A stretch of DNA of 64,000 nt from Vicinamibacteria bacterium (GTDB lineage: Bacteria; Acidobacteriota; Vicinamibacteria; Fen-336): assembly GCA_963578825.1 (NCBI GenBank), contig CAUZDW010000008.1, forward strand, positions 24,640 to 88,639, read 5' to 3'. The notes under the pieces are model-generated. The model made no database searches and was not told the origin of the DNA. It worked only from the letters and a program-made list of their open reading frames with translations. The position numbers and the translations under genes were made by a program. This document shows, piece after piece, positions 1 through 64,000 of the stretch (the stretch's first letter is position 1; each line of letters starts with the position of its first letter).

Positions 1-975
1 CGAGATTCGACGTGTGGTGAGGACAACGAACGCGACGAGCGCGGCAAGGAGTACGGCGAGCGGCACGGCGACGGCGGGCCGGTGCAGGAGGGTCAGTGGC
101 GACACACGTCTCTCCGCACGACGCTCCCGACACCCCTCGATGTCGCGGAGGAGCGGAGCGGCGTTCGGATAGCGCGCCTCCGGGTCCTTGGCCAGACACC
201 GATAGACGATTGTCTCCACCTCGCGATCGACCTCGGGGCGGAGGCGGCGCACCGGCATCGGGTCGTCGCGAAGAACTGCGCTGATGACCGCCGCGGTCGT
301 CTCTCCCTTCATCGCACGCTGGCCGGTGAGCATCTCGTAGAGGAGCAGCCCGAAGGCGAACACGTCGGTGCGGGCATCCACTCCTCGGCCGTGAGCCTGC
401 TCCGGCGACATGTACGCGGGTGTTCCCAGGATGGCACCGGTCCCGGTGCGCGGCCCCTCGCTCAGCGTCTGCGCGCTGCTCGCCTCCGAGTCGGCGAGCG
501 GCGCCGTCAACTGCGCCAGACCGAAGTCGAGGATCTTCGCGTGACCGTCGGGGGTGATCATCACGTTGCTCGGCTTGATGTCGCGGTGGACGATCCCGGC
601 CGCATGGGCGGCCGCCAGCCCGGAGGCGATCTCCGTGGCGAGCCGGAGCGCTTCGTCCACGGCGAGAGGCCCACGGGCGAGCCGGGCGTGCAGCGACTCG
701 CCCTCGACGAGCTCCATTGCGATGAAGTCTGCGTCGCTGTCGGGGTCCCGTCCGACCTCGTAGATCGTGACGATGTGCGGGTGGTTCAACGAGGAGGCCG
801 AGCGGGCCTCCTGGAGGAAACGACGGCGATGGTCGGGGTCGCCGCCCGCCTCCGGCTTGAGCCGCTTGAGGGCGACCACGCGCTGCAGACGAGTGTCACG
901 GGCGCGGTAGAGGACACCCATGCCGCCCTCACCGAGCTCGCCGAGAATCTCGTAGTCCGCGAGGATCTCGCCCAT
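1..975 (-). CDS. Hanks-type Ser/Thr protein kinase with C-terminal TM segment; 3' end runs off window start
   Basis: Minus-strand translation from ATG (plus 973-975): MGEILADYEILGELGEGGMGVLYRARD...VALKRL...IVHRDIKPSN...DFGLAQ...GTPAYMSPEQ. The HRD codon lies at plus 586-588, in frame with the start (129 codons). There is no stop before position 1. The plus ORF 82..1026 in the track is an antisense shadow frame. Confidence 0.85.
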   Translation of the reverse strand, partial: MGEILADYEILGELGEGGMGVLYRARDTRLQRVVALKRLKPEAGGDPDHRRRFLQEARSASSLNHPHIVTIYEVGRDPDSDADFIAMELVEGESLHARLARGPLAVDEALRLATEIASGLAAAHAAGIVHRDIKPSNVMITPDGHAKILDFGLAQLTAPLADSEASSAQTLSEGPRTGTGAILGTPAYMSPEQAHGRGVDARTDVFAFGLLLYEMLTGQRAMKGETTAAVISAVLRDDPMPVRRLRPEVDREVETIVYRCLAKDPEARYPNAAPLLRDIEGCRERRAERRVSPLTLLHRPAVAVPLAVLLAALVAFVVLTTRRIS

Positions 976-1279
976 CACATATTCCTTCGACTGGCCTTCA
1001 ACGGACCCGGCGTCGTGTCAGGCTGACGGCGGGAGTCTACAACGTCCCCCGCTCTTGCGGGGCGGAGATGCCCCGCCATCCTCATGTTGGCGGGCGAGCT
1101 CAGCCGAAAGCATCCACGCCACCGCGCGACTTGTTGGCTGCGCGCCGCTATTGTTTGCGTGCGGGGTGCGTCCTCGAGCCCTTTTCGTCCGTATACCAGA
1201 TGACGGAGGCAACGCTGGACCTCGACCGGAAAGACGCGGAGCGCCTGCGCAAGGCGACCTCACGGGCCTCGAAGGCCTC

Positions 1280-1780
1280 ATGGGGCGCCATCAGCAGCGA
1301 CTCTTCCGGTACCTGCGGCGTCTCCTGGGAGACGAGACGATGGCGGAGGACCTGTTCCAGCAGACGTGGGTGAGGGTGGCCGAGCGGATCCGGAGCTTCG
1401 ACGCGGCGCGGCCGTTCGGCCCCTGGCTCCTCACCGTGGGACGCAACCTCGCCCTCGACCACCTGCGGCGGTACCGGCCGCAGAGCCTCGACGAGGCGGA
1501 CGAGCCGGTCGCCCCGGCCGAGCGCTCGAGCTCCGCGGGCGACGCCCTCGAGCGGCTCGCCCTCCGGGAGCGAAGGGAGCGGCTGGAGGCGGCCCTGACC
1601 GGTCTGGCCGCACACGATCGGGAGGCCCTCTCACTGCGCTTCGACGAGGAGCTGTCGCTCAAGGAGATCGCGGCGCTCGTCGGGGTGCCCCTCCCGACGG
1701 CCAAAGCGCGGCTCTACCGCGCCCTCCGCCGCCTGCGCACCCGGCTGCTCACGATGGGACCGAAGGAGGAGTGGGCCTGA
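1280..1780 (+). CDS. ECF (sigma-70 family) RNA polymerase sigma factor
   Basis: MGRHQQRLFRYLRRLLGDETMAEDLFQQTWVRV (region 2) ... LSLKEIAALVGVPLPTAKARLYRALRRLR (region 4 HTH). The first ATG in frame is at 1280. An upstream frame-0 ATG at 1200 encodes MTEATLDLDRKDAERLRKA, which reads like the missing region-2.1 start, so the 5' end is probably frameshifted (see findings). Confidence 0.8.
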   Translation: MGRHQQRLFRYLRRLLGDETMAEDLFQQTWVRVAERIRSFDAARPFGPWLLTVGRNLALDHLRRYRPQSLDEADEPVAPAERSSSAGDALERLALRERRERLEAALTGLAAHDREALSLRFDEELSLKEIAALVGVPLPTAKARLYRALRRLRTRLLTMGPKEEWA

Positions 1781-2242
1781 TGAGCGACCACGTGGAAGAT
1801 CTACTGGCGCTCGGGGCAGCCGGGTCGTTGACTCAGGACGAAGACGCCCGGGTGACCGAACACCTGGGCGAGTGCACGGCCTGCAGCGCACGGGCCGAGG
1901 AATGGCACCGCGTCGCGACGGAGCTCGGCCGGCTTCCCGAGCCGGCGCCCTCGCCGGAGCTCGTGGCCCGAACGCGTGCGGCTGTGGAGCGCTGGCAGGC
2001 CGAGCGTGAGGAGCGAGCGTGGAACCGGGCGGCGCTCGGCTTCGTGATCGTCTTCGGGTGGACGCTCACGGGCGTCGCCTGGCTGCTCCTCGAGATCTTC
2101 GTCGGCGAGCTCACGGTGCGTCGCGATCGGCCGCTCGGGTCCACCGCGGCGTGGTTCGGTGTCTACCTGGTCGCCGGATGGGTGATGCAGGGTCTGCGGC
2201 GATGCTTCTCGGTCGCCGCGCACCTGAGGAAGGGAGAATCGC
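1780..2242 (+). CDS. Zinc-finger (ZAS-type) anti-sigma factor, membrane-anchored; 3' end unresolved
   Basis: ATG at 1780 overlaps the sigma-factor TGA (ATGA). The translation MSDHVEDLLALGAAGSLTQDEDARVTEHLGECTACSARAEEW carries an H-x3-C-x2-C ZAS motif, followed by two hydrophobic helices (GFVIVFGWTLTGVAWLLLEIFV; AAWFGVYLVAGWVMQGL). The frame has no stop until 2802 and runs into the next gene in another frame as Arg/Gly-rich junk. The end coordinate is therefore the start of the downstream gene, not a stop. Confidence 0.55.
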
Positions 2243-2743: not shown

Positions 2744-2852
2744 GCACTCGGAACGGCACGACGGGCGGTCGTGGTGTACGCTCGTTCATGGCGGTCCCCT
2801 GATGATGTTCAGGGGGCCGTCCCTGCACCAGAACGCTCACCGTCCGCCGACC

Positions 2853-2874: not shown

Positions 2875-2891
2875 CCGCAGGAGAAGGCCTC

Positions 2892-6125: not shown

Positions 6126-6135
6126 AATTGGGTCG

Positions 6136-6576: not shown

Positions 6577-6587
6577 AGGCTCGACGG

Positions 6588-9325: not shown

Positions 9326-9751
9326 TCAGCGGGACCGACGACGTGTCAGCGTCCAGTTCTCGATGGACAATCCCTTCACGCGTTCGAACTCCGTCGTGTT
9401 GTTCGTCACGAGCGTGAGGCCGAGACTCCGCGCGTGTGCTGCAATGAACAAGTCGTTGGCACCGATGAGAGCTCCGCGCTTCTTCAGGTCCGCCCGAATC
9501 TCGGCGTAGTGAGAAGCGGTGTCGTCGTTGAAGTGTAGCGCCTCGACGTACGGTAGCAACGCGGCGAGCGCTGCTGCATCCTGCTTGCGGCGCGGCGATA
9601 TTTCGACACCGTAGAGCAATTCAGCCCGGGTGATGAACGACATACAGACGTCGGTCACAGGCACGGCCTGCAACCGGCGCAGCACCGGCGGGCTGGACCG
9701 CTTCATGATGTAGGAGCACGTGTCTGTGTCCAGCATGTACCGGGCCATCAA
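9326..9751 (-). CDS. vapC: PIN-domain toxin VapC (type II TA)
   Basis: MMARYMLDTDTCSYIMK...TRAELLYGVE...NDLFIAAHARSLGLTLVTNNTTEF, with the PIN acidic residues. The start overlaps the vapB stop (ATGA). Local GC is visibly lower than the surroundings. Confidence 0.8.
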   Translation of the reverse strand: MMARYMLDTDTCSYIMKRSSPPVLRRLQAVPVTDVCMSFITRAELLYGVEISPRRKQDAAALAALLPYVEALHFNDDTASHYAEIRADLKKRGALIGANDLFIAAHARSLGLTLVTNNTTEFERVKGLSIENWTLTRRRSR

Positions 9752-9975
9752 GGCTCGCGCTCCTGCACTGGCAGGTCCTCGACGTCGCCCATGAACGCGT
9801 CCGACGCGACGGCGGCGCTCTCGAGGTACGGACCCCAGTCTCGCGGGCGGGGAGAGAGGATCACGTCCTCACCCTCTTTGCGGATGAAGACCTCGTTTGT
9901 GGAGAACTGGTACTCCTTGGGCAGCCGCACGGCCTGGCTGCGGTTGGTCATGAAGACTTTGGCGGTACGCGGCAT
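9748..9975 (-). CDS. vapB: SpoVT/AbrB-type antitoxin VapB
   Basis: MPRTAKVFMTNRSQAVRLPKEYQFSTNEVFIRKEGEDVILSPRPRDW. There is a GGAGG 9 nt before the ATG. The ORF extension to 10023 only translates the upstream AT-rich palindrome. Confidence 0.75.
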   Translation of the reverse strand: MPRTAKVFMTNRSQAVRLPKEYQFSTNEVFIRKEGEDVILSPRPRDWGPYLESAAVASDAFMGDVEDLPVQEREP

Positions 9976-10111: not shown

Positions 10112-13100
10112 ATGCGCGATCTGTGGCGATCCGTCGTGCTGGTTCTCGGGGTGGGGCTCGTGGTCGCCGCGGTCGTCTGCTCCCGCCCCCGACCCGTGGC
10201 CCGCGGACCACTCTCCCCTGCCGAGGCCGCCGTCGTCTCGGCGTTCACCGGGGGCACGATCTCCCGCGAGAGCCCAGTCCGGGTCGTGTTCAACGAACCC
10301 CTCGGCACGGGTCAGCCCCAGAACGCGCCTCTCGAGAGCGAGCCCTTCCGCTTTGACCCACCCCTCGAAGGGGTGACGGTCTGGACGTCTCCCAGCCGCC
10401 TCGAGTTCCGCCCCGGAGACCGTCTCGAGGAGGGCCGAACGTACTCCGCGCGCCTCGACCTCGAAGCCCTCCTCGGCAACGACGCCCCTGCCGATATCGA
10501 TCGCTTCGAGTTCACCTTCTCGGCGATGCGTCAGTCCTTCTCGGTCAACATCGAGGGCCTTCTGGCGGCGGACACGTCCGACATCGCCCAGCAGAAGCTG
10601 AGCGGGCGTCTCGTCACCGCCGATGTCGAGTCCGACGCGAAGGTCGAGCCACTGATCAGCGCCACTCAGGAGGGCAGAGCCCTCGAGATCGCCTGGAACC
10701 ACCACACGGACCGGCGCAGCCACGCTTTCGTAGTGAAAGCGATCGTCCGTGGCGACGAGACATCGAGTGTCGCTGTGCGGTGGGACGGCTCTTCGATCGG
10801 CGTGACCGAAGACGGCAGCCAGGAGATCGAGGTGCCTGCCGTCGACACGTTCACCGTGAGCCTGGCCCGCCCGGTGCAGGGCCGAGAGGAGTACGTGGAG
10901 CTGCGCTTCACGGACCCGCTGCGCCCCAACCAGAGCCTCAAGGGGCTCGTCGTCATCGGTGATCGGAAGGATCTCCGCTTCGTCATCCGCGGAAGCCTCG
11001 TCGAGATCTACGCCACGGGAGGCTTCTCGGGCGACCTGACCGTCCGGGTCGCCGCCGGTGTCAGAAACGCCCTCGGGTACCGCATGAAGGAAGCGCGCGA
11101 GCTGGGCGTTGCGTTCGAGCCGGTCAAGCCGCAGGTGCGCTTCGCCGGCACCGGCGTCATCGTGCCCACCTCGGCCAACCTAACCGTCGCCATCGAGGCC
11201 GTGAACCTCCGCGCTGTCGTCGTCGAGGCCATCCGGGTCCCCGAGACCAACCTCCCCCAGTTCCTGCAGGTGAACGACCTCGACGGCGAGCGGGAGCTGA
11301 ACCGTGTGGGTCGTGTCGTCTGGAGCAGGACCGTCTCCCTCGAGGTGACCGCCGACAAGCAGGATCGCCGGGTGGCGATCGGGCTGGATCTGTCTCCCCT
11401 CGTGGCGGACGGACCCGGCGGACTCTATCGGCTCACGCTCTCCTTCCGGCGCCCGCACATCCTGTGGTCGTGCCCGGGCGACGCCGCACTCGACGAGGAG
11501 CTGACGACCGCCAGCGAGCTGGCCACCGGCGAAGAGGAGGCCAGCTACTGGGACGCCTGGCTGCAGAACGAGGGCGACGATTGGCGGTCACGATACGAAG
11601 GCCGCCGCGACCCCTGCAACCCTGGCTACTACCAACACTTCTATGACCACGACATCCGCGCCTCGCGAAACGTCCTCGTGTCCGACATCGGTCTCATCGC
11701 CAAGGCGGGCGAGGACGGCACGGTGCTGCTGGTGGCCACGGACCTGCGTTCAGCGGCGCCCCTCCAGGGCGCTGCCGTCACGCTCACCGACTCTCAGCAC
11801 GGCACTCTCGCCACCGGGCACACCGGGGGCGACGGCCTCGTCCGCCTCGAGGTGGAGCGGGCTCCCTTCCTCGCCATGGCGCGCCACGGGAGACAGACCG
11901 GCTACCTGCGCCTCGACAACGGGAGCGCCCTCTCCATGGCGCATTTCGACGTCGCGGGGTCCCGGTCTCCCAAGGGTCTCAAGGGCTTTCTCTACGGCGA
12001 GCGGGGCGTCTGGCGGCCGGGCGACACGCTGCACCTCACGTTCATCCTCCAGGACCCCTCGGGACGGCTCGCCTCGGCCGAGCATCCTGTTCGCTTCGAG
12101 CTTCTCAACCCGCGGGGACAGGTGGTGCGGACGCTGACCCGGGCCGACTGGACCGACGGTTTCTCGGTCTTCGAGATCGCGACACCGCCGGACGCTCCCA
12201 CGGGCGCCTACACCGGGCGGGTCACGGTGGGCGGGGCGGTCTTCGAAAAGGCTCTCAAGATCGAGACGGTCATGCCCAACCGCCTCAAGATCGGCCTCGA
12301 CTTCGGACGGGAGATGCTGGAGTCGAGCGAAAGCCTGTCCGCCGCCCTGACGGCGACGTGGCTTCACGGTGCGACCGCCCGGAACCTGAAGGCCGACGTG
12401 GAGCTGGCGCTGTCCGCAGGGCGGACGCGGTTCGATCGCTGGGCCGAGTTCGTCTTCGACGACCCGACCCGGCGGTACGCGACCGAGCGCCAGACCGTCT
12501 TCGACGGCGCCCTCGACGCCTCCGGTCACGCGCGTGTCGACGCGCGGGTCGACCCGGGGGATGCTGCGCCCGGGATGCTCCGGGCCGACTTCACGACCCG
12601 TGTCTTCGAGCCCGGCGGGGCGTTCAGTATCGACCGCTTCAGCCTCCCGTTCTCGCCGTACGAGCGCTACATCGGCATCCGGCCGCCCAGGGGCGATCGG
12701 GCGCGGGGCATGCTCCTCACGGATACGACGCACGAGCTCAGCATCGTGGCGGTGGACTCCTCGGGACGCCCGGCGGGAGACGGCACGGTGGAGGTGAAGC
12801 TCTACAAGATCGACTGGCGCTGGTGGTGGGAGAAGGGCGAGCGTGGCCTGGCGGCGTGGGCGGAGGCGACCGCGCACACGCCCCTCGACTCGGGGGTGGT
12901 GACGCTCGAGGACGGAGTCGGGACGTGGCCCTTCGAGATCAAGCACCCCGAGTGGGGCCGCTACCTCATCACGGCTGCCGACCGGAAGGGCGGTCACCGG
13001 ACCGGGCAGGTCGTCTACATCGACTGGCCGGGATGGGCCGGGCGCGGGCGGAAGGAGGCCCAGGGGGCCACGGTCTTGACCTTCGCCGCCGAGAAGGAGG

Positions 13101-15673
13101 AGTACGACGTGGGCGAGACGGTGACTCTCGTCCTGCCCACCCCGCAGAAGGGGCGGGCCCTCGTCAGCCTCGAAACCGGGTCTTCGGTGCTGCGAACCGA
13201 ATGGGTCGAGGCCACCGGGACCGAGACCCGTTACCGTTTCGAAGCCACTCCGCGGATGGCGCCCACCATCTACGCCCACGTCACCCTGCTGCAGCCCCAC
13301 GGGCAAACGGCCAACGACCTTCCGATCCGCCTGTATGGCGTGACCCCGGTGAAGGTGCTCGACCCGAAGACACGCCTCCAGCCCGTGGTGGAGTCGGCGG
13401 AGGTCTTCTCTCCCGAGAGCCAGGCGACGATCACGGTCCGTGAGGCCTCGGGACGGCCGATGACCTACACGCTTGCCGTGGTGGACGAAGGGCTTCTGGG
13501 CCTCACCCGCTACGCCACGCCGAATCCCTGGGACCACTTCTACGCCCGCGAGGCCCTCGGTGTGAGGACATGGGACCTCTACGATCAGGTCCTCGGCGCC
13601 TGGGGCGGAGTGCTGGAGCGTCTGCTCGCCATCGGCGGAGACGAGGAGGGGGTGCGCGCCGACGCACAACGCGCCAACCGCTTTCCACCGATGGTGCGTT
13701 TCCTCGGACCCTTCCGCCTGGCCGCCGGGGCCGCCGGAACACATGACGTCGACGTGCCCCAGTACGTGGGAGCTGTCCGGGTGATGGTGGTGGCCGGACG
13801 GGATGGGGCCTTCGGTGCGGCCGATCGGCAGGCCTTCGTGCGGCGCCCGCTCATGATCCTGGCGACACTCCCTCGTGTGCTCGGGCCCGAGGAAGAGGTG
13901 GCGCTTCCGGTGTCGGTCTTTGCCATGGAGCCGCAGGTCCAGGACGTCGAGGTGTCGGTGAAGACCTCCGGGCCACTCCGGGCCGATCCGCCCGTCCGCA
14001 AGACGCTCTTGTTCGACGCCCCGGGCGACGATCTGGTGAGCTTCGATCTGCGGACCGCGTCGGGGCTCGGCGTCGGGACCGCCACGGTGGAGGCCGTCTC
14101 GGGCTCGGAGCGGGCGGTCCAGACCATCGAGATCGACGTGCGGATGTCGACGCAACTGGCGGTGGACGTCCTCGGCACGACGCTCCAGCCCGGGGAATCC
14201 TGGAGGCCCAGGGTGTCCTTCCCCGGGCTCCCCGGTACGAACGAGGCGACCCTCGAGGTGTCCCGGACTCCCCCCCTCGACCTGGGACGACGGCTCGCCT
14301 CGCTGCTGCGATACCCGCACGGCTGTGTGGAGCAGGCCGTCTCCGCCGCCTTTCCCCAGCTCTCCCTCGGCCGTCTTCTCGAGCTCGCCCCGTACCAGGA
14401 GGAACGGGTCGAAAAAAACGTCAAGGCCGCCCTGGAGCGACTGCAGTCGTTCCAGACCTCGGGCGGAGGCTTCGGCTACTGGCCCGGCGACGACGATCCC
14501 AGCGACTGGGTGACGAACTACGCCGGCCACTTCGTCCTCGAGGCCTGGGCCGCGGGCTACCTGCCCCCACCCGGGATGCTCGACCAGTGGACGCGGTTCC
14601 AGGAGCGACGGGCGCGGGCCTGGGTGCCGGGATCGGGACGGGCCGAGCTCGTGCAGGCCTACCGGCTCTTCACGCTGGCCCTGGCCGGAGCCCCCGAGCT
14701 CGGGGCCATGAACCAGCTCCGCGAGCAGGACACTCTGCCCGTGACCACCCGCTGGCGGCTGGCCGCGACCTACGAGATGGCCGGCCAGCCCGAGGCGGCG
14801 GACGCGTTGGCCACTCCGGGCCCGGTGACGGTCAAGCCCTATCGCGAGCTGGCCGGCACGTTCGGCTCGGACGTGCGGGACCGGGCAATGATCCTCGAGT
14901 CGCTCCTCATCCTCGAGCGGGGCGAATCCATCGGCCCTCTCGTGCAGAGCCTCTCCAAGTCTCTCTCTTCGAACCGCTGGCTCAGCACCCAGGAGACGGC
15001 GTACGCACTCCTGGCCCTGGCCCGATCCGCGGGACCGGTGGGAGCCGAGACGGCGTTCACGTGGGCGTGGCGAGACACAGAAGCGGTCCGGGCCACGTCA
15101 CCAGCTCCTCTCGTCCAGCGCGAGCTCGAGACCGACGAGGAGACGCGGGGCTCGCTCGTCGTGAGCAACGTGGGCGAGGGAGTTCTCTACCCTCGCGTCA
15201 TCCTGTCCGGGATGCCTGCGGTCGGCCGCGAGACCGCCGCATCCAACGGGCTCGTGCTCGGCGTCGAATACAAGACGACGGACGGTGGGGCTCTGAATCC
15301 GTCGCGCCTCGACCAGGGGACCGACTTCAAGGCCATCGTGACCGTCACCAACACCGGGGAGCGGGGCGACTATGACCAGCTGGCCCTCTCGCATCTCGTC
15401 GCCTCGGGCTGGGAGATCCACAACGAGCGGATGGGTCCCGGCGGTCGGCGGCCTCCGACGAGTATCACGTACCAGGACGTCCGCGACGACCGAGTCTACA
15501 GCTACTTCAATCTGCGAGCCGGGGAGACGAAGACCGTGGAGCTTCTCCTGAACGCCAGCTACCTCGGCCGCTTCTACCTCCCGCCGGTCGGGATCGAGGC
15601 CATGTACGACGCCACGATCAATGCCCGCGTCGTGGGGCGCTGGGTCGAGGTGGTGCAGGCGGGGAGCCGCTAG
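10112..15673 (+). CDS. Bacterial alpha-2-macroglobulin (YfhM/ECAM-like), 1853 aa, lipoprotein
   Basis: N-terminal signal with Cys (VAAVVCS). A long run of MG-like repeats leads to the thioester motif GCVEQ in LLRYPHGCVEQAVSAAFPQLSLG. C-terminal receptor-binding-like region. A single uninterrupted ORF with a TAG stop. Confidence 0.85.
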   Translation: MRDLWRSVVLVLGVGLVVAAVVCSRPRPVARGPLSPAEAAVVSAFTGGTISRESPVRVVFNEPLGTGQPQNAPLESEPFRFDPPLEGVTVWTSPSRLEFRPGDRLEEGRTYSARLDLEALLGNDAPADIDRFEFTFSAMRQSFSVNIEGLLAADTSDIAQQKLSGRLVTADVESDAKVEPLISATQEGRALEIAWNHHTDRRSHAFVVKAIVRGDETSSVAVRWDGSSIGVTEDGSQEIEVPAVDTFTVSLARPVQGREEYVELRFTDPLRPNQSLKGLVVIGDRKDLRFVIRGSLVEIYATGGFSGDLTVRVAAGVRNALGYRMKEARELGVAFEPVKPQVRFAGTGVIVPTSANLTVAIEAVNLRAVVVEAIRVPETNLPQFLQVNDLDGERELNRVGRVVWSRTVSLEVTADKQDRRVAIGLDLSPLVADGPGGLYRLTLSFRRPHILWSCPGDAALDEELTTASELATGEEEASYWDAWLQNEGDDWRSRYEGRRDPCNPGYYQHFYDHDIRASRNVLVSDIGLIAKAGEDGTVLLVATDLRSAAPLQGAAVTLTDSQHGTLATGHTGGDGLVRLEVERAPFLAMARHGRQTGYLRLDNGSALSMAHFDVAGSRSPKGLKGFLYGERGVWRPGDTLHLTFILQDPSGRLASAEHPVRFELLNPRGQVVRTLTRADWTDGFSVFEIATPPDAPTGAYTGRVTVGGAVFEKALKIETVMPNRLKIGLDFGREMLESSESLSAALTATWLHGATARNLKADVELALSAGRTRFDRWAEFVFDDPTRRYATERQTVFDGALDASGHARVDARVDPGDAAPGMLRADFTTRVFEPGGAFSIDRFSLPFSPYERYIGIRPPRGDRARGMLLTDTTHELSIVAVDSSGRPAGDGTVEVKLYKIDWRWWWEKGERGLAAWAEATAHTPLDSGVVTLEDGVGTWPFEIKHPEWGRYLITAADRKGGHRTGQVVYIDWPGWAGRGRKEAQGATVLTFAAEKEEYDVGETVTLVLPTPQKGRALVSLETGSSVLRTEWVEATGTETRYRFEATPRMAPTIYAHVTLLQPHGQTANDLPIRLYGVTPVKVLDPKTRLQPVVESAEVFSPESQATITVREASGRPMTYTLAVVDEGLLGLTRYATPNPWDHFYAREALGVRTWDLYDQVLGAWGGVLERLLAIGGDEEGVRADAQRANRFPPMVRFLGPFRLAAGAAGTHDVDVPQYVGAVRVMVVAGRDGAFGAADRQAFVRRPLMILATLPRVLGPEEEVALPVSVFAMEPQVQDVEVSVKTSGPLRADPPVRKTLLFDAPGDDLVSFDLRTASGLGVGTATVEAVSGSERAVQTIEIDVRMSTQLAVDVLGTTLQPGESWRPRVSFPGLPGTNEATLEVSRTPPLDLGRRLASLLRYPHGCVEQAVSAAFPQLSLGRLLELAPYQEERVEKNVKAALERLQSFQTSGGGFGYWPGDDDPSDWVTNYAGHFVLEAWAAGYLPPPGMLDQWTRFQERRARAWVPGSGRAELVQAYRLFTLALAGAPELGAMNQLREQDTLPVTTRWRLAATYEMAGQPEAADALATPGPVTVKPYRELAGTFGSDVRDRAMILESLLILERGESIGPLVQSLSKSLSSNRWLSTQETAYALLALARSAGPVGAETAFTWAWRDTEAVRATSPAPLVQRELETDEETRGSLVVSNVGEGVLYPRVILSGMPAVGRETAASNGLVLGVEYKTTDGGALNPSRLDQGTDFKAIVTVTNTGERGDYDQLALSHLVASGWEIHNERMGPGGRRPPTSITYQDVRDDRVYSYFNLRAGETKTVELLLNASYLGRFYLPPVGIEAMYDATINARVVGRWVEVVQAGSR

Positions 15674-15691
15674 GAAGCGGCGCGGCACCAG

Positions 15692-22238: not shown

Positions 22239-22353
22239 CACATCGAGTCGTCCGCGTCGGTCGCCCGCGAAGTGCGGGTCGCGTTCTCGAGGGCGAGAGA
22301 CCAACCACGGGGAACCGGCGCACCCAGCCTGCGGGTACAATCAGCACTCGCGG

Positions 22354-23628: not shown

Positions 23629-23690
23629 GGTCGGTCTTCGAGTCGGCGGTCGCGATGGCCGGGCCACAAGAGGGTCCCGGACCTGACGTT

Positions 23691-25211: not shown

Positions 25212-25353
25212 GCTCGATTTGATCGGACTCGCCTTTGGGAGTAGCGCTCCCGAGCGGCCTTTGGCTGATCCCGCGTGAGGGCAGATTACATCACGGATTT
25301 CGGAGAGGACGGTGGAGAATAAACTGCTCGACGCGGCGTGGTAGATTTCGTCG

Positions 25354-27268: not shown

Positions 27269-27342
27269 CGGCTGATAAGTGCTCGTTTTTGCTTAGAGCA
27301 GTTTCAACTGGGCCGCAAACAGTGCCTCCATCGGGCTTGGTT

Positions 27343-47857: not shown

Positions 47858-47868
47858 GACGGGGGGCC

Positions 47869-49095
47869 ATGCCTTCCCCGACGAGCCCGGGACGGCCCCG
47901 CTCGATACTTCATCTCGACATGGACGCCTTCTTCGCGGCGGTCGAGCAACGCGACAGGCCCGAGCTGAAGGGGCGGCCAGTCATCATCGGAGCCGACCCG
48001 AAAGGCGGTCGAGGGCGGGGTGTGGTCTCGACGGCCTCATACGAAGCGCGTCGCTTCGGGGTAGGGAGCGCCATGCCGATCTCGCAGGCCTTCCGCGCGT
48101 GCCCGCACGGCGTCTACCTGCCCCCGGACATCGAGCTCTACTCCCGGGAGTCCCGGCGCATCATGGACATCCTGCGGCGCGTCACCGATCGCGTGGAGCC
48201 GGTCTCGATCGACGAGGCCTTCCTCGACGTGACCGCCGGTGAGCGCGCTTTCGGAACCGGGGAGACCGTGGCCAGGCGGCTGAAGAAGGAGATCCGGGAC
48301 GAGACCGGCCTCACCGCCTCCGTGGGCGTCGCGACGTCCAAGCTCGTGGCCAAGGTGGCCTCCGACATGCGCAAGCCCGACGGCCTGGTCGTGGTGGTGC
48401 CCGGGGAAGAGGCCGCCTTTCTCGCCCCGCTCCCGATGCGACGGCTCTGGGGCGTCGGGCCGAAGATGGAGGAGCGGCTCGCGAAGCTGGGCGTCGTGAC
48501 CATCGGCGACCTAGCCGCCCTCGAGCACGGACGGCTCGAGAACCGGCTCGGGACCCACGGCCAGGACCTTCAGAAGCTGGCCCGGGGGATCGACGAGCGA
48601 GCGGTTCACGGCGAGTCCGAAGGGGCCAAGAGCATCGGCCAGGAGCACACCTTCGACACCGACACCGCGGACGCCGAGCGACTCCGCGCGTTACTGCTCT
48701 CTCTTGCCGACAGCGTCGCTGCACGCCTGCGCTCCCATGGCCTCAAGGGCCGCACCCTCACCCTCAAGTACCGCGACGAGACGTTCCGCACGAGGACTCA
48801 CGCTCGCACGCTGGGGGCCGGCGTGGACTCCGGCAACGCGATCTTCGACGTGATCTTTGCCTTGTTCGAGGACGTTCACGGGGGCAGAAGGGTCCGGCTC
48901 CTGGGGATCTACGCATCCCACTTCGGGTCGGGCTCCCCCCAGCTCGATCTCTTCCCGGAAACGGACGAGTCCCCCGGGGCAGCCGACCGCCTCCGCGACG
49001 AGGTCGCCCGACGCTTCGGGAAGGGGTCGCTCACCCGGGCGAGCCTGGTCGGCCACCGGGAGAGGCGCAATCCCTCCGACCGACCGACCGAGTAG
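47869..49095 (+). CDS. dinB: DNA polymerase IV (Y-family)
   Basis: ILHLDMDAFFAAVEQRDRPELKGRPVIIG...SIDEAFLDV...ASVGVATSKLVAKVASDMRKPDG, the canonical DinB motifs. Confidence 0.85.
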   Translation: MPSPTSPGRPRSILHLDMDAFFAAVEQRDRPELKGRPVIIGADPKGGRGRGVVSTASYEARRFGVGSAMPISQAFRACPHGVYLPPDIELYSRESRRIMDILRRVTDRVEPVSIDEAFLDVTAGERAFGTGETVARRLKKEIRDETGLTASVGVATSKLVAKVASDMRKPDGLVVVVPGEEAAFLAPLPMRRLWGVGPKMEERLAKLGVVTIGDLAALEHGRLENRLGTHGQDLQKLARGIDERAVHGESEGAKSIGQEHTFDTDTADAERLRALLLSLADSVAARLRSHGLKGRTLTLKYRDETFRTRTHARTLGAGVDSGNAIFDVIFALFEDVHGGRRVRLLGIYASHFGSGSPQLDLFPETDESPGAADRLRDEVARRFGKGSLTRASLVGHRERRNPSDRPTE

Positions 49096-49144
49096 GCCAC
49101 GTCGCTCATCCGCGACGCCTGCGAGGGCGAAGGCCAGGACCCGA

Positions 49145-50055
49145 CTAGTGTGGCCGCGCCAGCACGGCGAGCGCTGCTGCGCCCAGGCCCAGGGTCTCGC
49201 GCCACGGGAGGGACAAGCGATCCCCCGAGAAGAGTCGGGGCGCCGAGCCTGATGAAGCCATCTCCTGCAACCGGTCGCGAACGTTGTGGAGCTCACGAGC
49301 AAGATCGACAGTCGATGCGTAGCGCTCGGCGGGTTGCTTCTCGAGGCAGCGTTCGACGATCCACCGCGCCGGTGCGGGAAAAGAGGGGTTCAGCGACGAA
49401 AGAGGCTCCGGAGGAGCCTCGATGATTGCGGTCAGGGTCTGGGGCGGACTGTCGCGACGGAACGCCTGCCTCCCCGTCGCCATCTCGTAGACGATCGCCC
49501 CGAAGGAGAACTGATCGGACCGGAAGTCCACCACCTGGCCACGGGCCTGCTCGGGCGACATGTACCCGACGGTGCCAAGGACCGCGCCGTCCGCGGTCCT
49601 TGGAGAGTCCGGGCTGGCCGGCCAGGTGGAAAACTCCGAGCCGAACCAGACCTCTCGATCCCCGGAGGAGTGGCCCGCAGCTTGGCGAGACCGAAGTCGA
49701 GGACCTTGACGAGCCCGTCTCCGGTGACCATCACGCTCTCCGGCTTGAGGTCTCGGTGCACGATCTCCCGGAGGGTCTGTCCCTCGACGAGCTCCATCAC
49801 GATGTAGTGAAGGCCGGACTCTTCCCCGATCTCGTGGATCGTCACGATGTTCGGGTGGTTGAGGGAAGAGACCGCTCGGGATTCCTGGGCGAAGCGGGCG
49901 AGCCGAATCGGGTCGGACGCGAACCGCTCGGGAAGGAACTTCACCGCCACGTCGCAGTGGAGATCCTGGTCGTGGGCGCGGAAGACCTCTCCCATTCCCC
50001 CGACCCCGAGCTTGCCCGTGAGCTCGTAACGGCCGAACCGCATGCCAACCGACAC
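49145..50055 (-). pseudogene. Decayed Hanks-type Ser/Thr kinase (frameshift plus internal deletion)
   Basis: The N-terminal frame reads [20 protein letters not shown]...VAVKFL...HRDLKP...[10 protein letters not shown]. The activation-loop/APE region ([35 protein letters not shown]) continues in a different frame (track ORF 49145..49561). The segment between helix C and HRD (…[15 protein letters not shown]) is about 30 aa shorter than in kinase 1. Confidence 0.65.
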
Positions 50056-50077
50056 AGGTACGAGGGCCCCCTCTCGA

Positions 50078-53712: not shown

Positions 53713-56391
53713 TCAGCGACCCCGGGGACGGCTCACGAGATTGGCCAGAAGCCGCCAGCCCCCGGGGACGCCGGCCGGGACCTGCCGGAAGAGCACGAGG
53801 CCCACGTAGGTCCAGGTCCCCTTGCCGACGCTGGCGTCGACGAGGATCCCCTTCTTCTCCCCGAGGTTGTTCGGGAAGGGATCGGTGGCGGCAAGAATCT
53901 CCACGTATCGAGGGTCTCTCGTGGCGAGAAAGTAGATCCCTCGCTCCTGCACCCACCCGGACCAGTCTGCATCGCCGAGCCGATTGGGCGCTGTGAGAAG
54001 AGCGTGGTCGGGGGCGAGGATCGTGAAGGATGCCGTCTCGTCGGTGATCCGCTGGCGGGTCACTGCCGCCGGGTAGGGGGCGAAGGGGCTCTCCGCCTCG
54101 CCACGGGATCGCCCCCGTGCGCGGCGGGGCGAAACCTGGTTGAACGCGAAGCGGTTGTATTGGACGACGAGGTGCCCGCCCGCCTCGACCCACTCCATGA
54201 GCCGATGGTGCACGGAGCGGAGATCGCGGCGGTTCTCGTACGCACGAATGCCGGTCACGATCGTCGAGAAGCGGGTCAAGTCTCCAAACGCCAGATCCTC
54301 GGCGGTGAGGAGCGTGAGGGGGACACCGAGCTGGCGAATGCCGTCGGCGACCGCATCTCCCGATCCCATCACGTAGCCGACCGAGGCGTCCGGCGCGACC
54401 CGGACGTCGAGGACGAGCACGTGCACTCGAGCGGCGTGGAGACGCTGTCGCCGGTGTGTGTGGTCGTAGGCGATCGCCTGCACAGTGTCCCGGTACTCGC
54501 GGCCCGCTCGAGAGGCAACGGCCTGGAGAACCACGGTGCCCGCGGTCGGCCGCGCCGGCGGCGTCACCTCGAAACGGGCGGCCACCTCTTCGCCCTCGTA
54601 GGCGAAGTGAAGCCGCATCTCGGATGGCTCGACGGTCCACCCCTCGGGCACCTCCAGCCGGACCATGGCCTCTCCGGTCCCGGAAGCGTTGTGGCGGGCG
54701 AAGACCCGAACCTCCAGGGGATGCCCCGCACCCGCCAGGGGCACGGCGGCTCGCTCCGGCGACACGCGAACCGATACCTCCGGGACGACCTGCACCACGT
54801 GCTGCTTCTCGCCTCCGACGAACGGACCGGGGTAGCGAAAGCGGGCGGGGGCCGTGAGCGTCGTCAGGGCGCCGGCGATGTGGATCTGCAGGCGGGCGAC
54901 GACGGCGGGCGGAGTCCAGGGGAGCGTCTCGTGAGCCGACACATCGAGGGCGTGGCGGTCGAGATCGCTCCGCCGGTGCCAGTAGGGTCCCGAGGGTCGG
55001 GCGTCGGCAGGCACGGTCACCGTGAACGTCAGACGCTCCTCCCCCGCGCCATCGATCCTTCCCATGACGGTCTGCGGCGCGGCAACCGTCCACCCCTCGG
55101 GCACCTCGACGGTGACATCGTCGACGTCGACGGGCGCGTCACCGTGGTTCCAGGCAGAGACGGTCACCTCGAACGACTGGCCAGGCGTCACCAGCCCGTC
55201 CTCGGCCCGGGCTTCGACGACGAGGCCCTGGGCCAGCACCAGGGCGCGCTCGATGTCCCGCTCTTCGTCCTTCAGGCGGGTGGCGATCTCGCCGCGGGCG
55301 ACGGAGTCAGGGACTTCGACGGGCAATCGCTCCAGGAAGGCGCGCGTCGCCTCCAGCGCTTCGGCCAGGGGGGGCGCCGCGTCGTCCAGGACCAGCGGGT
55401 TGAACGAATCCCGGGCGAGGGAAGCCTTCTCCTGCAGCTCGGCCAGCGAAGAACCGAGCGCGGACCCGGGGGCGAAGCGCGCGAGGCCGACGAGCGTCGT
55501 GTCCACCCCGTCGAGAATATCGTCCTCCGCCGCCTCGATTGCGGGCTCGGCGTCCACCAGGAAGTAGACGCCACGGGCCGGCCCGGGATCAGCCTTGAGC
55601 TGTCCCATGTCCTGGCACCGGTGCATGGATCGAGCAAGGCTTCCGAGCTCCTGCCACGTCATCCCGAGGAGGGGGTCAAAGACACCGGTCGCCATCTCGA
55701 CCGGCGTCCCGGGGAGGTCGACGGGAAAGCCGCCGGTTCCTCCCTGGTAGAGCTTCCGCGCCTGCCACGGCTCGAGACCCGCGCTCAGCTGGTCCGGAAA
55801 CCGCGCCGGGTCGGCGGCGGCGCGAAAGGCGTCCCGTGTGAGCTGGGCCACCGCTTGATGGTGCTGCCCCCCCCGACCGGGTGCCTCCAGCGGGAGAGTC
55901 AGCACGACGTCGGGGCGGAACGAACGGATGACCCGCACGATGTCCCCGGTGGTCTGCTCCCGACCCCACTTCTCCAGCGTCTCCTCCACACTGAAGGAGT
56001 AGCCGAACTCGTAGGGGCGGCCAAAGTACTGCTCCACGGCGTCCATCCGGTGCATCGCCATCAGCTCCTCGGTGCGGAGGACACCGAGGGCGTCGAACAG
56101 CTCGGAGCCAATGGCGTTCTGGCCGCCCTCGCCCCGGGTCAGGGTGAGGAGGGCGGTGCGCAGACCCATTCCGCGGGCCAGGCGGACGAGGAGGCCGTTG
56201 TGCTCGTCGTCAGGGTGAGCGGTGACGTAGAGCACGCGACCGCTCACGCCGACTCGCCTGAGAGCCAGCCCCAGCCCGCTGGCGCCGGTGTCGAGGGCAA
56301 GAGGCTCGAGCGGGGCTGTGGCCACAGCTCCGACGGAGACGACCATCGCCAGGGTCAGGAGCAGGACCAGAAACCTTCGCTCAGGATGCAT
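53713..56391 (-). CDS. Large (892 aa) PIG-L/LmbE-family N-acetylglucosaminyl deacetylase with long C-terminal extension
   Basis: Signal peptide, then VLYVTAHPDDEHNGLLVRLA (PIG-L HPDDE zinc motif). About 650 further aa with no motif I recognise. Confidence 0.7.
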   Translation of the reverse strand: MHPERRFLVLLLTLAMVVSVGAVATAPLEPLALDTGASGLGLALRRVGVSGRVLYVTAHPDDEHNGLLVRLARGMGLRTALLTLTRGEGGQNAIGSELFDALGVLRTEELMAMHRMDAVEQYFGRPYEFGYSFSVEETLEKWGREQTTGDIVRVIRSFRPDVVLTLPLEAPGRGGQHHQAVAQLTRDAFRAAADPARFPDQLSAGLEPWQARKLYQGGTGGFPVDLPGTPVEMATGVFDPLLGMTWQELGSLARSMHRCQDMGQLKADPGPARGVYFLVDAEPAIEAAEDDILDGVDTTLVGLARFAPGSALGSSLAELQEKASLARDSFNPLVLDDAAPPLAEALEATRAFLERLPVEVPDSVARGEIATRLKDEERDIERALVLAQGLVVEARAEDGLVTPGQSFEVTVSAWNHGDAPVDVDDVTVEVPEGWTVAAPQTVMGRIDGAGEERLTFTVTVPADARPSGPYWHRRSDLDRHALDVSAHETLPWTPPAVVARLQIHIAGALTTLTAPARFRYPGPFVGGEKQHVVQVVPEVSVRVSPERAAVPLAGAGHPLEVRVFARHNASGTGEAMVRLEVPEGWTVEPSEMRLHFAYEGEEVAARFEVTPPARPTAGTVVLQAVASRAGREYRDTVQAIAYDHTHRRQRLHAARVHVLVLDVRVAPDASVGYVMGSGDAVADGIRQLGVPLTLLTAEDLAFGDLTRFSTIVTGIRAYENRRDLRSVHHRLMEWVEAGGHLVVQYNRFAFNQVSPRRARGRSRGEAESPFAPYPAAVTRQRITDETASFTILAPDHALLTAPNRLGDADWSGWVQERGIYFLATRDPRYVEILAATDPFPNNLGEKKGILVDASVGKGTWTYVGLVLFRQVPAGVPGGWRLLANLVSRPRGR

Positions 56392-56434
56392 CGAAGCCCC
56401 CTCTTTTTCGGCTCGGTCGACGAACCAACGGCGC

Positions 56435-57634
56435 TCAGCGCCGCTTCAGGTTGAGAACCAGCCGGAGATTGAGGCGCAGCCGCGTGGTGCCCGGCGCGAT
56501 CTCGATGTCGACTGGCACCTCGACCTCGGCCGTCTCTGCGGTCGCCGGGGCTGGCGCGGCGACCGCCGGGGCCGGCGCTGCGGCCGGCGGCGGTGCCGAG
56601 GAGATCGCCGGTGGCGGCGTCGGGGGTGGTGTGACCGGAGCGGCAGGCATCGGGACGTGGCTCGCGCTCCGGTGATCCGGCAGCTCGTCGATCTCCTCGA
56701 GATCCATCTCGATCTCGGGCTCCGGAATCCCCGGGTTGGCGATTCGACGCCTGAGCTCCGCCGCCTCATCCCGCGAGCTCACCAGGGTTCCCTGCGGGTC
56801 GTGGGCAATGACGGCGCTCGGCTGAGGGATCGGTGCTCCGTAGGCGGAAGCCGGCGTGTCCTCGTGGATCACCATCGGGCGAGCGCTGGCGACGGGCTCT
56901 TCGACCTCGACGGCCGGGTCCCCGAGAAGGTTCGGCGCCGGGGCTGGTGCGGGTGCCGGCGGCGGGGCCACGGCGACGGGCGGGGCGGCGCGAGGCGGGG
57001 CGGGGGCCCGGCCCGCTCCTGGAGCGACTGGGGGAGGCGCGGCATCGCCGTACTTCGCCGAGAGCGACTTGAACACGAGCTTCGTGACCGCCTTGAGCGT
57101 GTCCTCGACCCCGGCCCCGTTGACGGCGATCGCCTCGTTGAACGGGTAGTTGTGGGGGTTCATCCGCTCGTTCAGGATCTCGATGGGCAGGGCGTTGGGC
57201 AGGTCTCGCTTGTTGTACTGAAGAACGATGGGGATCTCGTCGGGGTCGATCTCGTTGGCCTCGAGATTCTGTCGCATGTTCTCGAAGCTCTCGAGGTTGG
57301 CATCGAGCATCGCCTCCTGAGAATCACAGACGAAGACCAGAGCGTCGGCTCCCTTCAAGACCATCCGCCGCGTGGCGTTGTAGAACACCTGACCCGGGAC
57401 CGTGTACAGCTGGATGCGGGTCTTCATCCCGCGGATGCTCCCGATCTCGATGGGAAGGAAGTCGAAGAAGAGGGTGCGGTCCGTCTCGGTTGCCAGCGAG
57501 AGCATCTTGCCTTTGTTCTTGATGGGCAGCTTCTCATGGATCCACTGGAGGTTCGTGGTCTTGCCGCACAGTCCTGGCCCGTAGTAGACGATCTTGACCG
57601 TCAGCTCCTTCGTCGAGTAGTTCAAGAAGACCAT
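56435..57634 (-). CDS. MglA-like Ras-superfamily GTPase with about 200-aa Pro/Ala-rich C-terminal extension
   Basis: The first 195 aa read as a close MglA-family GTPase (…KIVYYGPGLCGKTTNLQ…TETDRTLFFDFLPIEIGSIRGMKTRIQLYTVPGQ…VLQYNKRDLPNA…). A low-complexity tail follows (APPPVAPGAGRAPAPP…PAPAPAPAP…PPPTPPPAISSAPPPAAAPAPAVAAPAPA), ending …RLRLNLRLVLNLKRR. Confidence 0.8.
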   Translation of the reverse strand: MVFLNYSTKELTVKIVYYGPGLCGKTTNLQWIHEKLPIKNKGKMLSLATETDRTLFFDFLPIEIGSIRGMKTRIQLYTVPGQVFYNATRRMVLKGADALVFVCDSQEAMLDANLESFENMRQNLEANEIDPDEIPIVLQYNKRDLPNALPIEILNERMNPHNYPFNEAIAVNGAGVEDTLKAVTKLVFKSLSAKYGDAAPPPVAPGAGRAPAPPRAAPPVAVAPPPAPAPAPAPNLLGDPAVEVEEPVASARPMVIHEDTPASAYGAPIPQPSAVIAHDPQGTLVSSRDEAAELRRRIANPGIPEPEIEMDLEEIDELPDHRSASHVPMPAAPVTPPPTPPPAISSAPPPAAAPAPAVAAPAPATAETAEVEVPVDIEIAPGTTRLRLNLRLVLNLKRR

Positions 57635-58408: not shown

Positions 58409-58409
58409 C

Positions 58410-61425: not shown

Positions 61426-61429
61426 GGCC

Positions 61430-62227: not shown

Positions 62228-62245
62228 GGTTGTCTCCCCCTTCGC

Positions 62246-63205
62246 TCAGGCCGCGGGCGCCGTCTCGGCGCCCTGGTCGGTTGTCGTCAGTTCCAGGAAG
62301 ATGTCTTCGAGGCTCATGCCGACCTGCTCGAGGCCGAGGAGCCCGTGGCCAGCCGCCACGACGGCCGAGGCCAGCTCGGCCCGGACGTCGCGTCCGGCCT
62401 CGGCCTCGACGTCGACCACAAGCAGTTCGTTATGTCCACCCTTGAGGCGCGCGGCGAGAACGCCCGGCACCGCCCGCAGCGTGTCCAGGACAGGGATCTC
62501 CTCCCCTCGGATCTCGAGGCGCAGCGTGCCGGCGCCCGCGAGGCGGCGGGTCAGGTTCTCCGGCGTGTCCTCCGCCACGACGCGGCCCTTGTTGATGATC
62601 ACCACTCGCCCGCAGGTCATGGACACCTCGGGCAGAATGTGGGTCGAGAGGATGACGGTGTGCTCACCCCCGAGACTGCGGATGAGCTCCCGCGTCTCGA
62701 TGATCTGCTTGGGGTCGAGCCCGGCGGTGGGCTCGTCGAGGATCAGGACGTCGGGGTTGTGGAGAATGGCCTGGGCCAGGCCGACGCGCTGACGATAGCC
62801 CTTGGACAGCTTGCCGATAAGGGTCGTCCGAACGTCGCCCACGCGACACTTCTCGATGGCGTCGCCCACCTTCCCCTTGCGGTCCCCGGCCGAAACGCCC
62901 TTGATCTTCGCGCAAAAGTCCAGATAGTCGCGGACCGACATGTCCGGGTAGAGCGGAGGCGTCTCGGGCAGGTATCCCACCCGGCGGCGGACCTCCATGG
63001 GCTGCTCGTAGACGTCGTAGCCGCCCACCCGCGCCGTCCCTCCGGTCGGGGGCAGGTAGCAGGTGAGGATCCGCATGGTCGTGGTCTTCCCCGCTCCGTT
63101 GGGACCCAGGAAGCCCAGGATCTCCCCCTTGTTGACCCGGAACGAGACCCCATCCACCGCGGTGGCACGGCCGTACCTCTTGGTGAGGCTTTCAACCTCG
63201 ATCAT
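62246..63205 (-). CDS. ABC transporter ATP-binding protein (GldA-like)
   Basis: Walker A GPNGAGKTT, signature LSKGYRQRVGLAQAIL, Walker B VLILDEPTAGLD. Confidence 0.85.
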   Translation of the reverse strand: MIEVESLTKRYGRATAVDGVSFRVNKGEILGFLGPNGAGKTTTMRILTCYLPPTGGTARVGGYDVYEQPMEVRRRVGYLPETPPLYPDMSVRDYLDFCAKIKGVSAGDRKGKVGDAIEKCRVGDVRTTLIGKLSKGYRQRVGLAQAILHNPDVLILDEPTAGLDPKQIIETRELIRSLGGEHTVILSTHILPEVSMTCGRVVIINKGRVVAEDTPENLTRRLAGAGTLRLEIRGEEIPVLDTLRAVPGVLAARLKGGHNELLVVDVEAEAGRDVRAELASAVVAAGHGLLGLEQVGMSLEDIFLELTTTDQGAETAPAA

Positions 63206-63433
63206 CGTGCTCGCCTCTCACTGCTCATTTGTCTTCGGCCAGCCGCCCCCTCAGACGAAGCCGCCCGCTCCTCCTCGGAGCGAGGGACGCTCGTGTCTCT
63301 TCCGGGACTGGAGTAGCCGGGGCGCCCGGCCCGCCGTCGGGGAACACCCCCGCCGGTCGACGGCGCTTCAGCTGACCGACCAGTATCGTTAATATAGCGA
63401 CGATCTTTTCCATGTGTCAATATCAGCCACCCG

Positions 63434-64000
63434 ATGATGATGACCGCCTCGCCCAGAACCGCGCGCTGCGCCCGGCTCCGGCGCCTCGCCGACGACGTCC
63501 TCGGGGTCCCCGATCTGCCGGCCCTGCCGCGGCTGCTGACGGGAGATCTCCCTGCCGCACTCGGGGCCTCGAGCGCGACGCTCCTCCTGTGGGACCGCCG
63601 GCTCGAGAGCTTCGAGGGTGTCGCTCTCACCCGCGATGGCAGGCTCAGGACCTTCCAGCCCCGCCCGGCGGCTCGTCTCCGACGGCCACCTGTTGGAGAC
63701 CGCCGAGAACAAGGGCGAGGGGGCGCTCGTGCCTCTTCTGGCCCGAAGCGGGCTGGCAGGCACGCTCGTCCTGGGGCACGCGCCGCGGCGGCGGGGGCCC
63801 GTCTCCCCCGGCGAGGCGCGGATCGCCTCGCGGGCCGCCCTGGCCATCGAGAACAACGCGTATCAGAAGGAGCTGATCGCCTCCGAGCGCCTGGCGGCCC
63901 TCGGGACCATGGCGGGGATGCTGGCCCACGACTTTCGGGGTCCGATGACGGTGATCCGAGGCTACGCCGAGACGCTCCTGGCGCCAGGCCTCCCCCACGA
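63434..64000 (+). CDS. GAF-domain sensor histidine kinase, 3'-partial; apparent frameshift inside GAF
   Basis: From the ATG at 63434: MMMTASPRTARCARLRRLADDVLGVPDLPALPRLLTGDLPAALGASSATLLLWDRRLESFEGVALTRDGRLRTFQP (GAF N-terminal half). The +1 frame from about 63660 gives …LVPLLARSGLAGTLVLGH…GEARIASRAALAIENNAYQKELIASERLAALGTMAGMLAHDFRGPMTVIRGYAETLL (GAF C-terminal half plus HisKA H-box). It runs off the window end. Confidence 0.6.
   Translation, partial: MMMTASPRTARCARLRRLADDVLGVPDLPALPRLLTGDLPAALGASSATLLLWDRRLESFEGVALTRDGRLRTFQPRPAARLRRPPVGDRREQGRGGARASSGPKRAGRHARPGARAAAAGARLPRRGADRLAGRPGHREQRVSEGADRLRAPGGPRDHGGDAGPRLSGSDDGDPRLRRDAPGARPPPR

Follow-up and report, generated by a model that had tools for sequence, protein, structure and literature searches.

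Bacteria that have recently changed niche, such as Salmonella Typhi, Yersinia pestis, Shigella, Mycobacterium leprae and Sodalis, build up pseudogenes in their genomes. Streamlined planktonic bacteria, such as SAR11, Prochlorococcus and the OM43 Methylophilaceae, contain few pseudogenes, are small in size and usually have a low guanine-plus-cytosine (GC) content. A deletional bias in bacterial genome evolution was reportedly set out by Mira, Ochman and Moran 2001. Within the Acidobacteriota, the freshwater UBA12189 is treated as a case of streamlining in PMC11561045. Here, we describe a stretch of 64,000 nucleotides (nt) from a Vicinamibacteria bacterium (assembly GCA_963578825.1, contig CAUZDW010000008.1), referred to as the window, in which about one gene in six is broken. 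Among the casualties are an extracytoplasmic function (ECF) sigma factor and its anti-sigma factor, two kinases, an outer-membrane factor, a symporter and an ATP-grasp enzyme. We consider ordinary deletion-biased gene decay, enriched for signalling genes, in a marine lineage to be the probable explanation (probability roughly 0.8), as judged from sequence comparison.

The window has a GC content of 68%, compared to 0.66–0.70 in its relatives. As spurious open reading frames (ORFs) are numerous at high GC, a codon model was trained on long ORFs and used for coding-frame segmentation of the window, and all candidate ORFs were scanned against Pfam. Both approaches together yielded a total of approximately 52 genes. 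The window is identical to a stretch (approximately 15,106–79,105) of the 123,655-bp MEGAHIT contig k141_1151774 of ENA ERZ27247711. At every lesion but the one at 49667, the window is also 100% identical to contigs that stem from further ENA analyses, the JGI metagenomes 3300031802-4 and Logan assemblies built from several SRR90399xx/SRR90400xx runs; we refer to this population as strain A. Strain B, represented by Logan assemblies of SRR22804946-8, is conspecific with a nucleotide identity of 99.1–99.6% to the window. The closest metagenome-assembled genome (MAG) in the genome collection was GCA_964194855.1 (CAXMOH01; locus L097, also L203) at 93% nucleotide identity. In a metagenome scan with the lactonase gene, locus L014 was the sole close relative, the remaining 79 loci listed being distant.

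An earlier note on this DNA had listed seven lesions. All were present in the sequence, and each was pinned down by comparison with orthologues. The corresponding genes are:

1200–1780, plus strand: ECF sigma factor pseudogene; Pfam r2 and r4 domains in frame 2, first 18 codons in frame 3
1780–2802 (ORF; natural gene 1780–2246), plus strand: anti-sigma factor with zf-HC2 (Pfam match) and two transmembrane (TM) segments
22346–23628, plus strand: TolC-family outer-membrane factor (TolC/OEP), 5'-truncated; Pfam and homologue alignment
23691–25211, minus strand: sodium:solute symporter (SSF) pseudogene; one frame with TAG at 24456–24458 and 24342–24344
42571–43508, plus strand: RimK/LysX-like ATP-grasp pseudogene; NCBIfam rimK_fam, E = 1e-8
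49128–50060 (about), minus strand: kinase 2, Ser/Thr kinase remnant; Pkinase hidden Markov model match split over two frames with a gap
63434–64000, continuing to approximately 64604 past the window, plus strand: GAF-HisKA-HATPase histidine kinase pseudogene with a frameshift

All nine orthologues of the ECF sigma factor (194–215 amino acids) start with M(T)EAxLDLDRxDxARLRK-GDLTGL, and in the window a change of frame is required between RLRK and GDL, i.e., after codon 18. The lesion consists of the loss of one G from a run at 1253/1254 (AAGGGCGAC to AAGGCGAC); the first in-frame ATG past the shift occurs at 1280. The N-terminus is intact in the protein orthologues, which share 69–85% amino acid identity, and the repaired window sequence aligns with orthologues from end to end. 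Strain B has the deletion at 1253 in common with the window and adds a second hit, which is a Trp-to-TAG change at 1368 in L198 and a 1-nt deletion at 1410 in L197. The syntenic orthologue of the anti-sigma factor (L175) has a length of 155 amino acids. The C-terminus of a related anti-sigma protein, ...LLGRRAQEEGRIA*, matches frame 3 of the window, and one G is lost at 2187, 18 codons ahead of the natural TGA (2244–2246) that overlaps the ATG of the next gene. With this deletion the stop falls in another frame, so that the ORF extends over the following gene as far as 2802. The deletion at 2187 also occurs in strain B, and the anti-sigma gene was not called by gene callers in any assembly.

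At the second locus, neither a start codon nor a signal peptide was found upstream of the TolC-like gene in any frame. Solved TolC-family structures and 150 library representatives align with it from their residues 30–60. Approximately 42 N-terminal codons, including the start and the signal peptide, are gone, and the deletion junction is located at 22345/22346. Window positions 22346–25865 are missing from strain B, where 250 bp stand instead that code for an AcrB-type RND transporter up to codon 55 and are fused with the 3' portion of GFO. This RND stub begins 95 nt past position 22345, so in the ancestor the TolC-like gene was preceded by an RND gene. One deletion in strain A took the RND gene together with the 5' end of the TolC-like gene. 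Strain B, in an independent event, lost most of the RND gene, all of the TolC-like and symporter genes, and the 5' end of GFO. The symporter gene, deleted entirely in strain B, has suffered two CAG-to-TAG changes in the window. A Gln is present at both sites in 8/8 aligned homologues; the closest of these (L013, 83% nucleotide identity) has CAG twice, as does an intact orthologue with 90% amino acid identity (P0001). The repaired symporter aligns end to end with its orthologues. Its ratio of nonsynonymous to synonymous substitution rates (dN/dS) against the closest relative was 0.088, and that of an intact neighbour gene 0.098. Two further loci with symporter homologues (L176 and L177) displayed no synteny with the window.

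The ATP-grasp gene carries a 1-nt deletion after 42656 and a TAC-to-TAG change at 42771–42773. The gene is intact in the relatives L014 and L097, with which the repaired window sequence aligns end to end, and a collinear copy with 85% nucleotide identity was found at the DNA level in L096. As the strain B copy has the TAG but lacks the deletion at 42657, the TAG is the older and the 1-nt deletion the newer of the two lesions. The histidine kinase has lost 26 nt after 63660, and the identical deletion occurs in three further loci (L005, L006 and L007). More than 100 homologues of this kinase were listed, mostly 395–412 amino acids in length and in one frame; the gene is intact in L094 (93% nucleotide identity) and L095 (76%), and the repaired window sequence aligns end to end.

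For kinase 2, an Acidobacteriota MAG from soil (L118) has a syntenic full-length gene of approximately 893 codons that encodes a kinase domain, a TM helix and TPR repeats, downstream of an AMP-binding gene. This orthologue was identified by a scan of genome contigs; a joint query with the histidine kinase gave solely histidine kinase relatives among the 120 matches listed. Compared to L118, kinase 2 is missing approximately 93 nt internally, near 49767, and 1 nt at 49667. It is also truncated at the 3' end, at approximately 49150, by which everything past the start of the TM helix (approximately 600 codons, 1.8 kb) is lost. The internal deletion and the truncation are present in strain B, which does not have the deletion at 49667. 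The whole segment is missing from L097 and L096. A recent insertion of kinase 2, as its absence from these relatives and flanking CGAGGG direct repeats might imply, was ruled out by the syntenic full-length orthologue in L118. Kinase 2 is an ancestral gene with repeated losses.

Comparison of the two strains revealed the order of events. Common to both are the ECF and anti-sigma frameshifts, the TAG in the ATP-grasp gene, the internal deletion and truncation of kinase 2, and remnants of a LuxR-type regulator (see below). The 1-nt deletions at 42657 and 49667 occur in the window strain and, since strain B is without them, are the newest and specific to strain A. Exclusive to strain B are the Trp-to-TAG change at 1368, the 1-nt deletions at 1410 and 28981, and the deletion reaching from the RND gene to GFO.

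The earlier note had set four long genes, described as clean, against these lesions. Each of the four is a single ORF:

10112–15673, plus strand: alpha-2-macroglobulin (A2M) gene, intact, full domain set
15701–18169, plus strand: PbpC gene, intact, full domain set
40169–42214, minus strand: TPR/HEAT repeat gene, intact, full domain coverage
53713–56391, minus strand: PIG-L/NPCBM-associated gene, intact, full domain coverage

Strain B assemblies contain calls for a 1853-aa A2M product and an 822-aa PbpC. The PIG-L gene is collinear with the L097 orthologue over its full length and with that of L095 over residues 28–563, where the locus ends. All genes that are intact in the window and have an orthologue in the seven relative loci are collinear and free of stops. 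Overall, nine units at eight loci out of approximately 52 gene units in the window carry lesions, compared to none in approximately 66 kb of orthologous sequence from relatives. The argument that random indels would strike the long genes first turned out to be marginal or weak on its own: the probability that 13 events miss the four long genes by chance is 0.046, or 0.12 if only the nine first hits are counted. The proposed concentration of lesions on signalling and transport genes was borne out for signalling. In categories that were picked after the data had been seen, 5/8 signalling genes were broken compared to 4/44 others (Fisher p = 0.002; approximately 1e-4 if weighted by length), the five being the ECF sigma factor, the anti-sigma factor, the histidine kinase, the Ser/Thr kinase and the LuxR regulator. 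Transport genes were not enriched among the broken ones in the window (2/11 vs 7/41, p = 0.62); ZnuABC, a Na/Ca exchanger, a mechanosensitive (MS)-channel-like gene and a four-gene ABC-2 cluster are intact.

Side observations were made on two of the long genes. A2M stops with TAG (15671–15676 region) and the PbpC frame continues in-frame right after, leaving one stop between two long ORFs. The TPR gene, with its upstream sequence to approximately 42500, is missing at its position in L014 (83% nucleotide identity) and L096 (78%), in which the ATP-grasp gene adjoins the MS-channel-like gene. Strain B has the TPR gene, and so does L097, at the edge of the locus. The gene was therefore either gained in this lineage or lost from the relatives.

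Substitution counts were used to compare selection between lineages. In six intact genes, the window branch had 67 synonymous and 20 nonsynonymous changes and the sister branch 76 and 22, indicating that no lineage-wide acceleration has occurred. Between strains A and B, the pseudogenes differed by 4 synonymous and 12 nonsynonymous changes and the intact genes by 116 and 112, respectively (Fisher p = 0.039). On the window branch, 3 nonsynonymous and 12 synonymous changes were counted in the ATP-grasp gene and 4 and 9 in the histidine kinase gene. These low nonsynonymous numbers indicate that both inactivations are recent. A mutator burst as the source of double hits received no support, synonymous counts being equal on the window and sister branches.

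We considered whether the lesions stem from mistakes in sequencing or in the assembly of a metagenome contig, as four of them are 1-nt deletions in short G/C runs, a context in which errors can arise. In addition, the deletion at 49667 is covered solely by the window's own source contig, and the long-read relative L118 does contain many artefacts of this kind. Against this, each lesion except that at 49667 recurs unchanged in one to nine further strain A assemblies, short-read assemblies from several pipelines with ENA, JGI and Logan sample labels, and the older lesions are shared by strain B. Nonsense substitutions and deletions of 26 nt, approximately 93 nt and kilobase size are not generated by short-read error. 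Intact orthologues with 76–96% nucleotide identity exist for the symporter, the ATP-grasp enzyme and the GAF histidine kinase. In 16.7 kb aligned with L097 (93% identity), the ATP-grasp deletion is the sole frame-breaking coding indel, all others being intergenic, upstream of a likely start codon, or multiples of three. Taken together with the strain-specific secondary hits, we regard errors as a very improbable source and conclude from these comparisons that the lesions are derived and biological, in agreement with the earlier note. Even more remote is the notion that the genes still function, with TAG read as an amino acid, by programmed frameshifting or by phase-variable switching. Two in-frame TAGs do fall exactly on invariant Gln codons, and the 1-nt indels sit in G/C runs. 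However, 16/47 genes terminate with TAG where their homologues end and the third in-frame TAG replaces a Tyr, so that the residues would be Gln, Gln and Tyr; by this stop usage and the Tyr-to-TAG case, reassignment of TAG was ruled out. The runs comprise merely 2–3 nt, slippery heptamers are absent at the shifts, the orthologues are in a single frame, and the window contains no tRNA gene according to a tRNA scan.

The remaining explanations concern the forces by which genuine lesions were fixed. Genome-wide relaxed selection with drift-fixed pseudogenes, in a bottlenecked, host-restricted or laboratory lineage as the earlier note had suggested, would agree with the high lesion density, with more lesions in the flank and in strain B, and with a within-species nonsynonymous-to-synonymous count near 1. 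Such a high ratio is usual between very close strains, as Rocha et al. 2006 are said to have described. Intact genes have evolved no faster than those of the sister (20/67 vs 22/76), GC is like that of the relatives, and Pfam scans of every ORF across the 64-kb window detected neither a transposase domain nor an insertion sequence (IS) element. A bottlenecked or host-restricted lineage is thus not supported, and a laboratory origin is excluded by the occurrence of the population in many environmental metagenome samples under two distinct run-accession series. We therefore consider the drift explanation unlikely. Slightly less likely still is that inactivation itself was favoured, through regulatory economy or escape from a costly response, with secondary hits as hitch-hiking decay. 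Parallel independent deletions in both strains at the RND/TolC/symporter locus, loss of the same kinase gene by three related lineages, damage to both sigma and anti-sigma partners, and more disabling hits than other changes in the symporter and ATP-grasp genes would fit this idea. Yet dispensable genes subject to a deletional bias would be expected to disappear repeatedly just as well, and second hits bring no benefit. Several points also weigh against the deletion-biased, signalling-enriched decay that we favour. The enrichment rests on eight signalling genes in categories chosen post hoc, and it is diluted by the lesions of DLH, GFO and an Lhr-like helicase, detected in strain B and the flanking sequence, as these are not signalling genes. 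The ATP-grasp and histidine kinase genes have gained hardly any additional nonsynonymous changes on the window branch, so that two disabling hits per gene exceed the expectation of a simple neutral model, unless a large fraction of mutations consists of indels and nonsense changes. The recurrence is at the level of assemblies from three sources that may not be fully independent, as some ENA and Logan assemblies may re-use JGI runs, and the deletion at 49667 was seen in one assembly alone. Finally, relaxed selection and selection for loss are indistinguishable here.

According to the decay model, the species would be actively losing genes, at least 8 of approximately 52 loci being pseudogenes or remnants. 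The losses would have arisen by ordinary mutations with a strong deletion bias: four 1-nt G/C deletions in runs of 2–3, deletions of 26 nt and approximately 93 nt, at least two kilobase-scale deletions, and three single-base changes to TAG. A gene or module, once dead, would go on collecting hits, which explains why two or three lesions each are present in the symporter, the ATP-grasp gene, kinase 2 and the sigma/anti-sigma pair. Purifying selection continues to act on the long envelope genes, as it does on most genes for transport and metabolism. As the cause, we infer that the need for particular sensing and efflux/uptake functions may have been lost in the niche, followed by deletion-biased neutral decay. 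A more specific version can be offered tentatively: a free-living deep-ocean Vicinamibacteria species might be undergoing genome reduction that is still at an early stage and proceeds fast. Signal-transduction modules and an efflux/uptake locus would go first and coexisting strains would lose the same loci by independent deletions, the order of events being readable from metagenomes.

Further candidates for gene remnants were detected in the window:

26673 to approximately 26960, minus strand: C-terminal LuxR/GerE helix-turn-helix remnant with the last receiver-domain residues; Pfam GerE only
26933–27292, minus strand: N-terminal fragment of a secreted protein, approximately 110 codons; adjoins the LuxR remnant with a change of frame
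19874–20872, plus strand: short sulfatase-like gene; profile match jumps from position 75 to 248

A Pfam scan revealed no receiver domain for the LuxR remnant in any frame, and its alignment begins at residues 116–121 of the response regulators VraR and ChrA. The LuxR remnants occur in strain B as well, and the regulator has probably been truncated. The gap in the sulfatase-like profile suggests an in-frame internal deletion and thus a possible further casualty; strains A and B differ in this gene by 7 nonsynonymous and 3 synonymous changes. Approximately 6–8 kb to the right of the window on the same contig (L005 1245–3056), the gene for an Lhr-like DEAD/DEAH helicase occupies two frames and breaks off where the C-terminal helicase domain begins. 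A 221-aa HisKA+HATPase kinase without a sensor follows directly; a deletion has probably brought the two together as additional remnants. In strain B (L193), the DLH gene (28915–29802) has a 1-nt deletion at 28981 in codon 23, so that the product called has 248 aa instead of 295. This gene is intact in the window, indicating that decay is also under way in the sister strain.

Several neighbouring differences between the strains and relatives were recorded. At 47866, one C is missing in the window compared to strain B and L097, just upstream of the start codon of dinB (47920–49095); DinB (Pol IV) as called comprises 391 aa in the window strain and 408 aa in strain B. In the genes encoding GpgS and MPGP (36053–38133), strains A and B are approximately 3% apart (40 and 25 single-nucleotide polymorphisms), compared to 0.4–0.8% elsewhere. 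Upstream of 35844, strain B cannot be aligned and has a Na/H exchanger gene in place of the Na/Ca exchanger gene. This boundary beside the compatible-solute genes looks like the result of recombination or gene replacement. For the VapBC pair (9326–9975), protein identity to relatives is 100% for VapB and 98–100% for the PIN toxin, while the flanking DNA is 92–94% identical; VapBC DNA is 96.6% identical in L200, so the pair is better conserved than its surroundings. In L095 (76% nucleotide identity), an extra 303-aa gene at 1857–2768 lies between the PIG-L and Ras-like genes and does not occur in the window (56391–56435). An Rfam scan of the window returned no match. The closest MAG, GCA_964194855.1 (L097/L203), carries the label 'uncultured Hyphomicrobium sp.', while its relatives are labelled Acidobacteriota or Vicinamibacteria. 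Within the PurE cluster at 90% identity, one member bears the label Vicinamibacteria, and the named MAG relatives are Acidobacteriota. The Hyphomicrobium label or the binning of this assembly is probably wrong.

With respect to annotation, the affected loci should be flagged as pseudogenes. The gene callers gave a truncated sigma factor, no anti-sigma factor, a split symporter and a split ATP-grasp enzyme, and a histidine kinase lacking the GAF half. The window is of value as an example of fresh deletion-biased loss in an abundant uncultured member of the Acidobacteriota, for which the order of events was obtained by strain comparison, in which signalling genes appear to go first and in which the intact genes give no sign of a genome-wide relaxation. 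If the pattern holds genome-wide, it bears on the debate over selection and drift in aquatic genome reduction. The underlying biology is known and well resolved here, and it reveals no new mechanism.

As in bacteria that have recently changed niche, recent disruptions in the window stand beside intact orthologues in relatives, frameshifts, nonsense changes and deletions are mixed, dead genes have received multiple hits, and strains differ in their lesions. Unlike those cases, no IS elements were found in the window, intact genes show no acceleration, GC is not shifted, and the population is environmental and uncultured. The amber (TAG) reassignment of some phages and pyrrolysine users is similar in that in-frame TAGs occur at conserved sense positions of well-conserved genes, but TAG often serves as a true stop here, and it replaces more than one kind of residue. 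With streamlined planktonic genomes, including UBA12189 (PMC11561045), the window would share losses that favour sigma factors, two-component and other signalling genes. The window lineage likewise appears to be aquatic, and the soil relative L118 keeps the full kinase gene. In contrast to streamlined genomes, the window has 68% GC and is rich in pseudogenes, which would place it at an early stage at most. With regard to the deletional bias of bacterial genomes, there is no difference: all indels inside dead genes are deletions, namely five 1-nt deletions if strain B is counted, single deletions of 26 nt and approximately 93 nt, and several of kilobase size, and the window is a local illustration of this rule.

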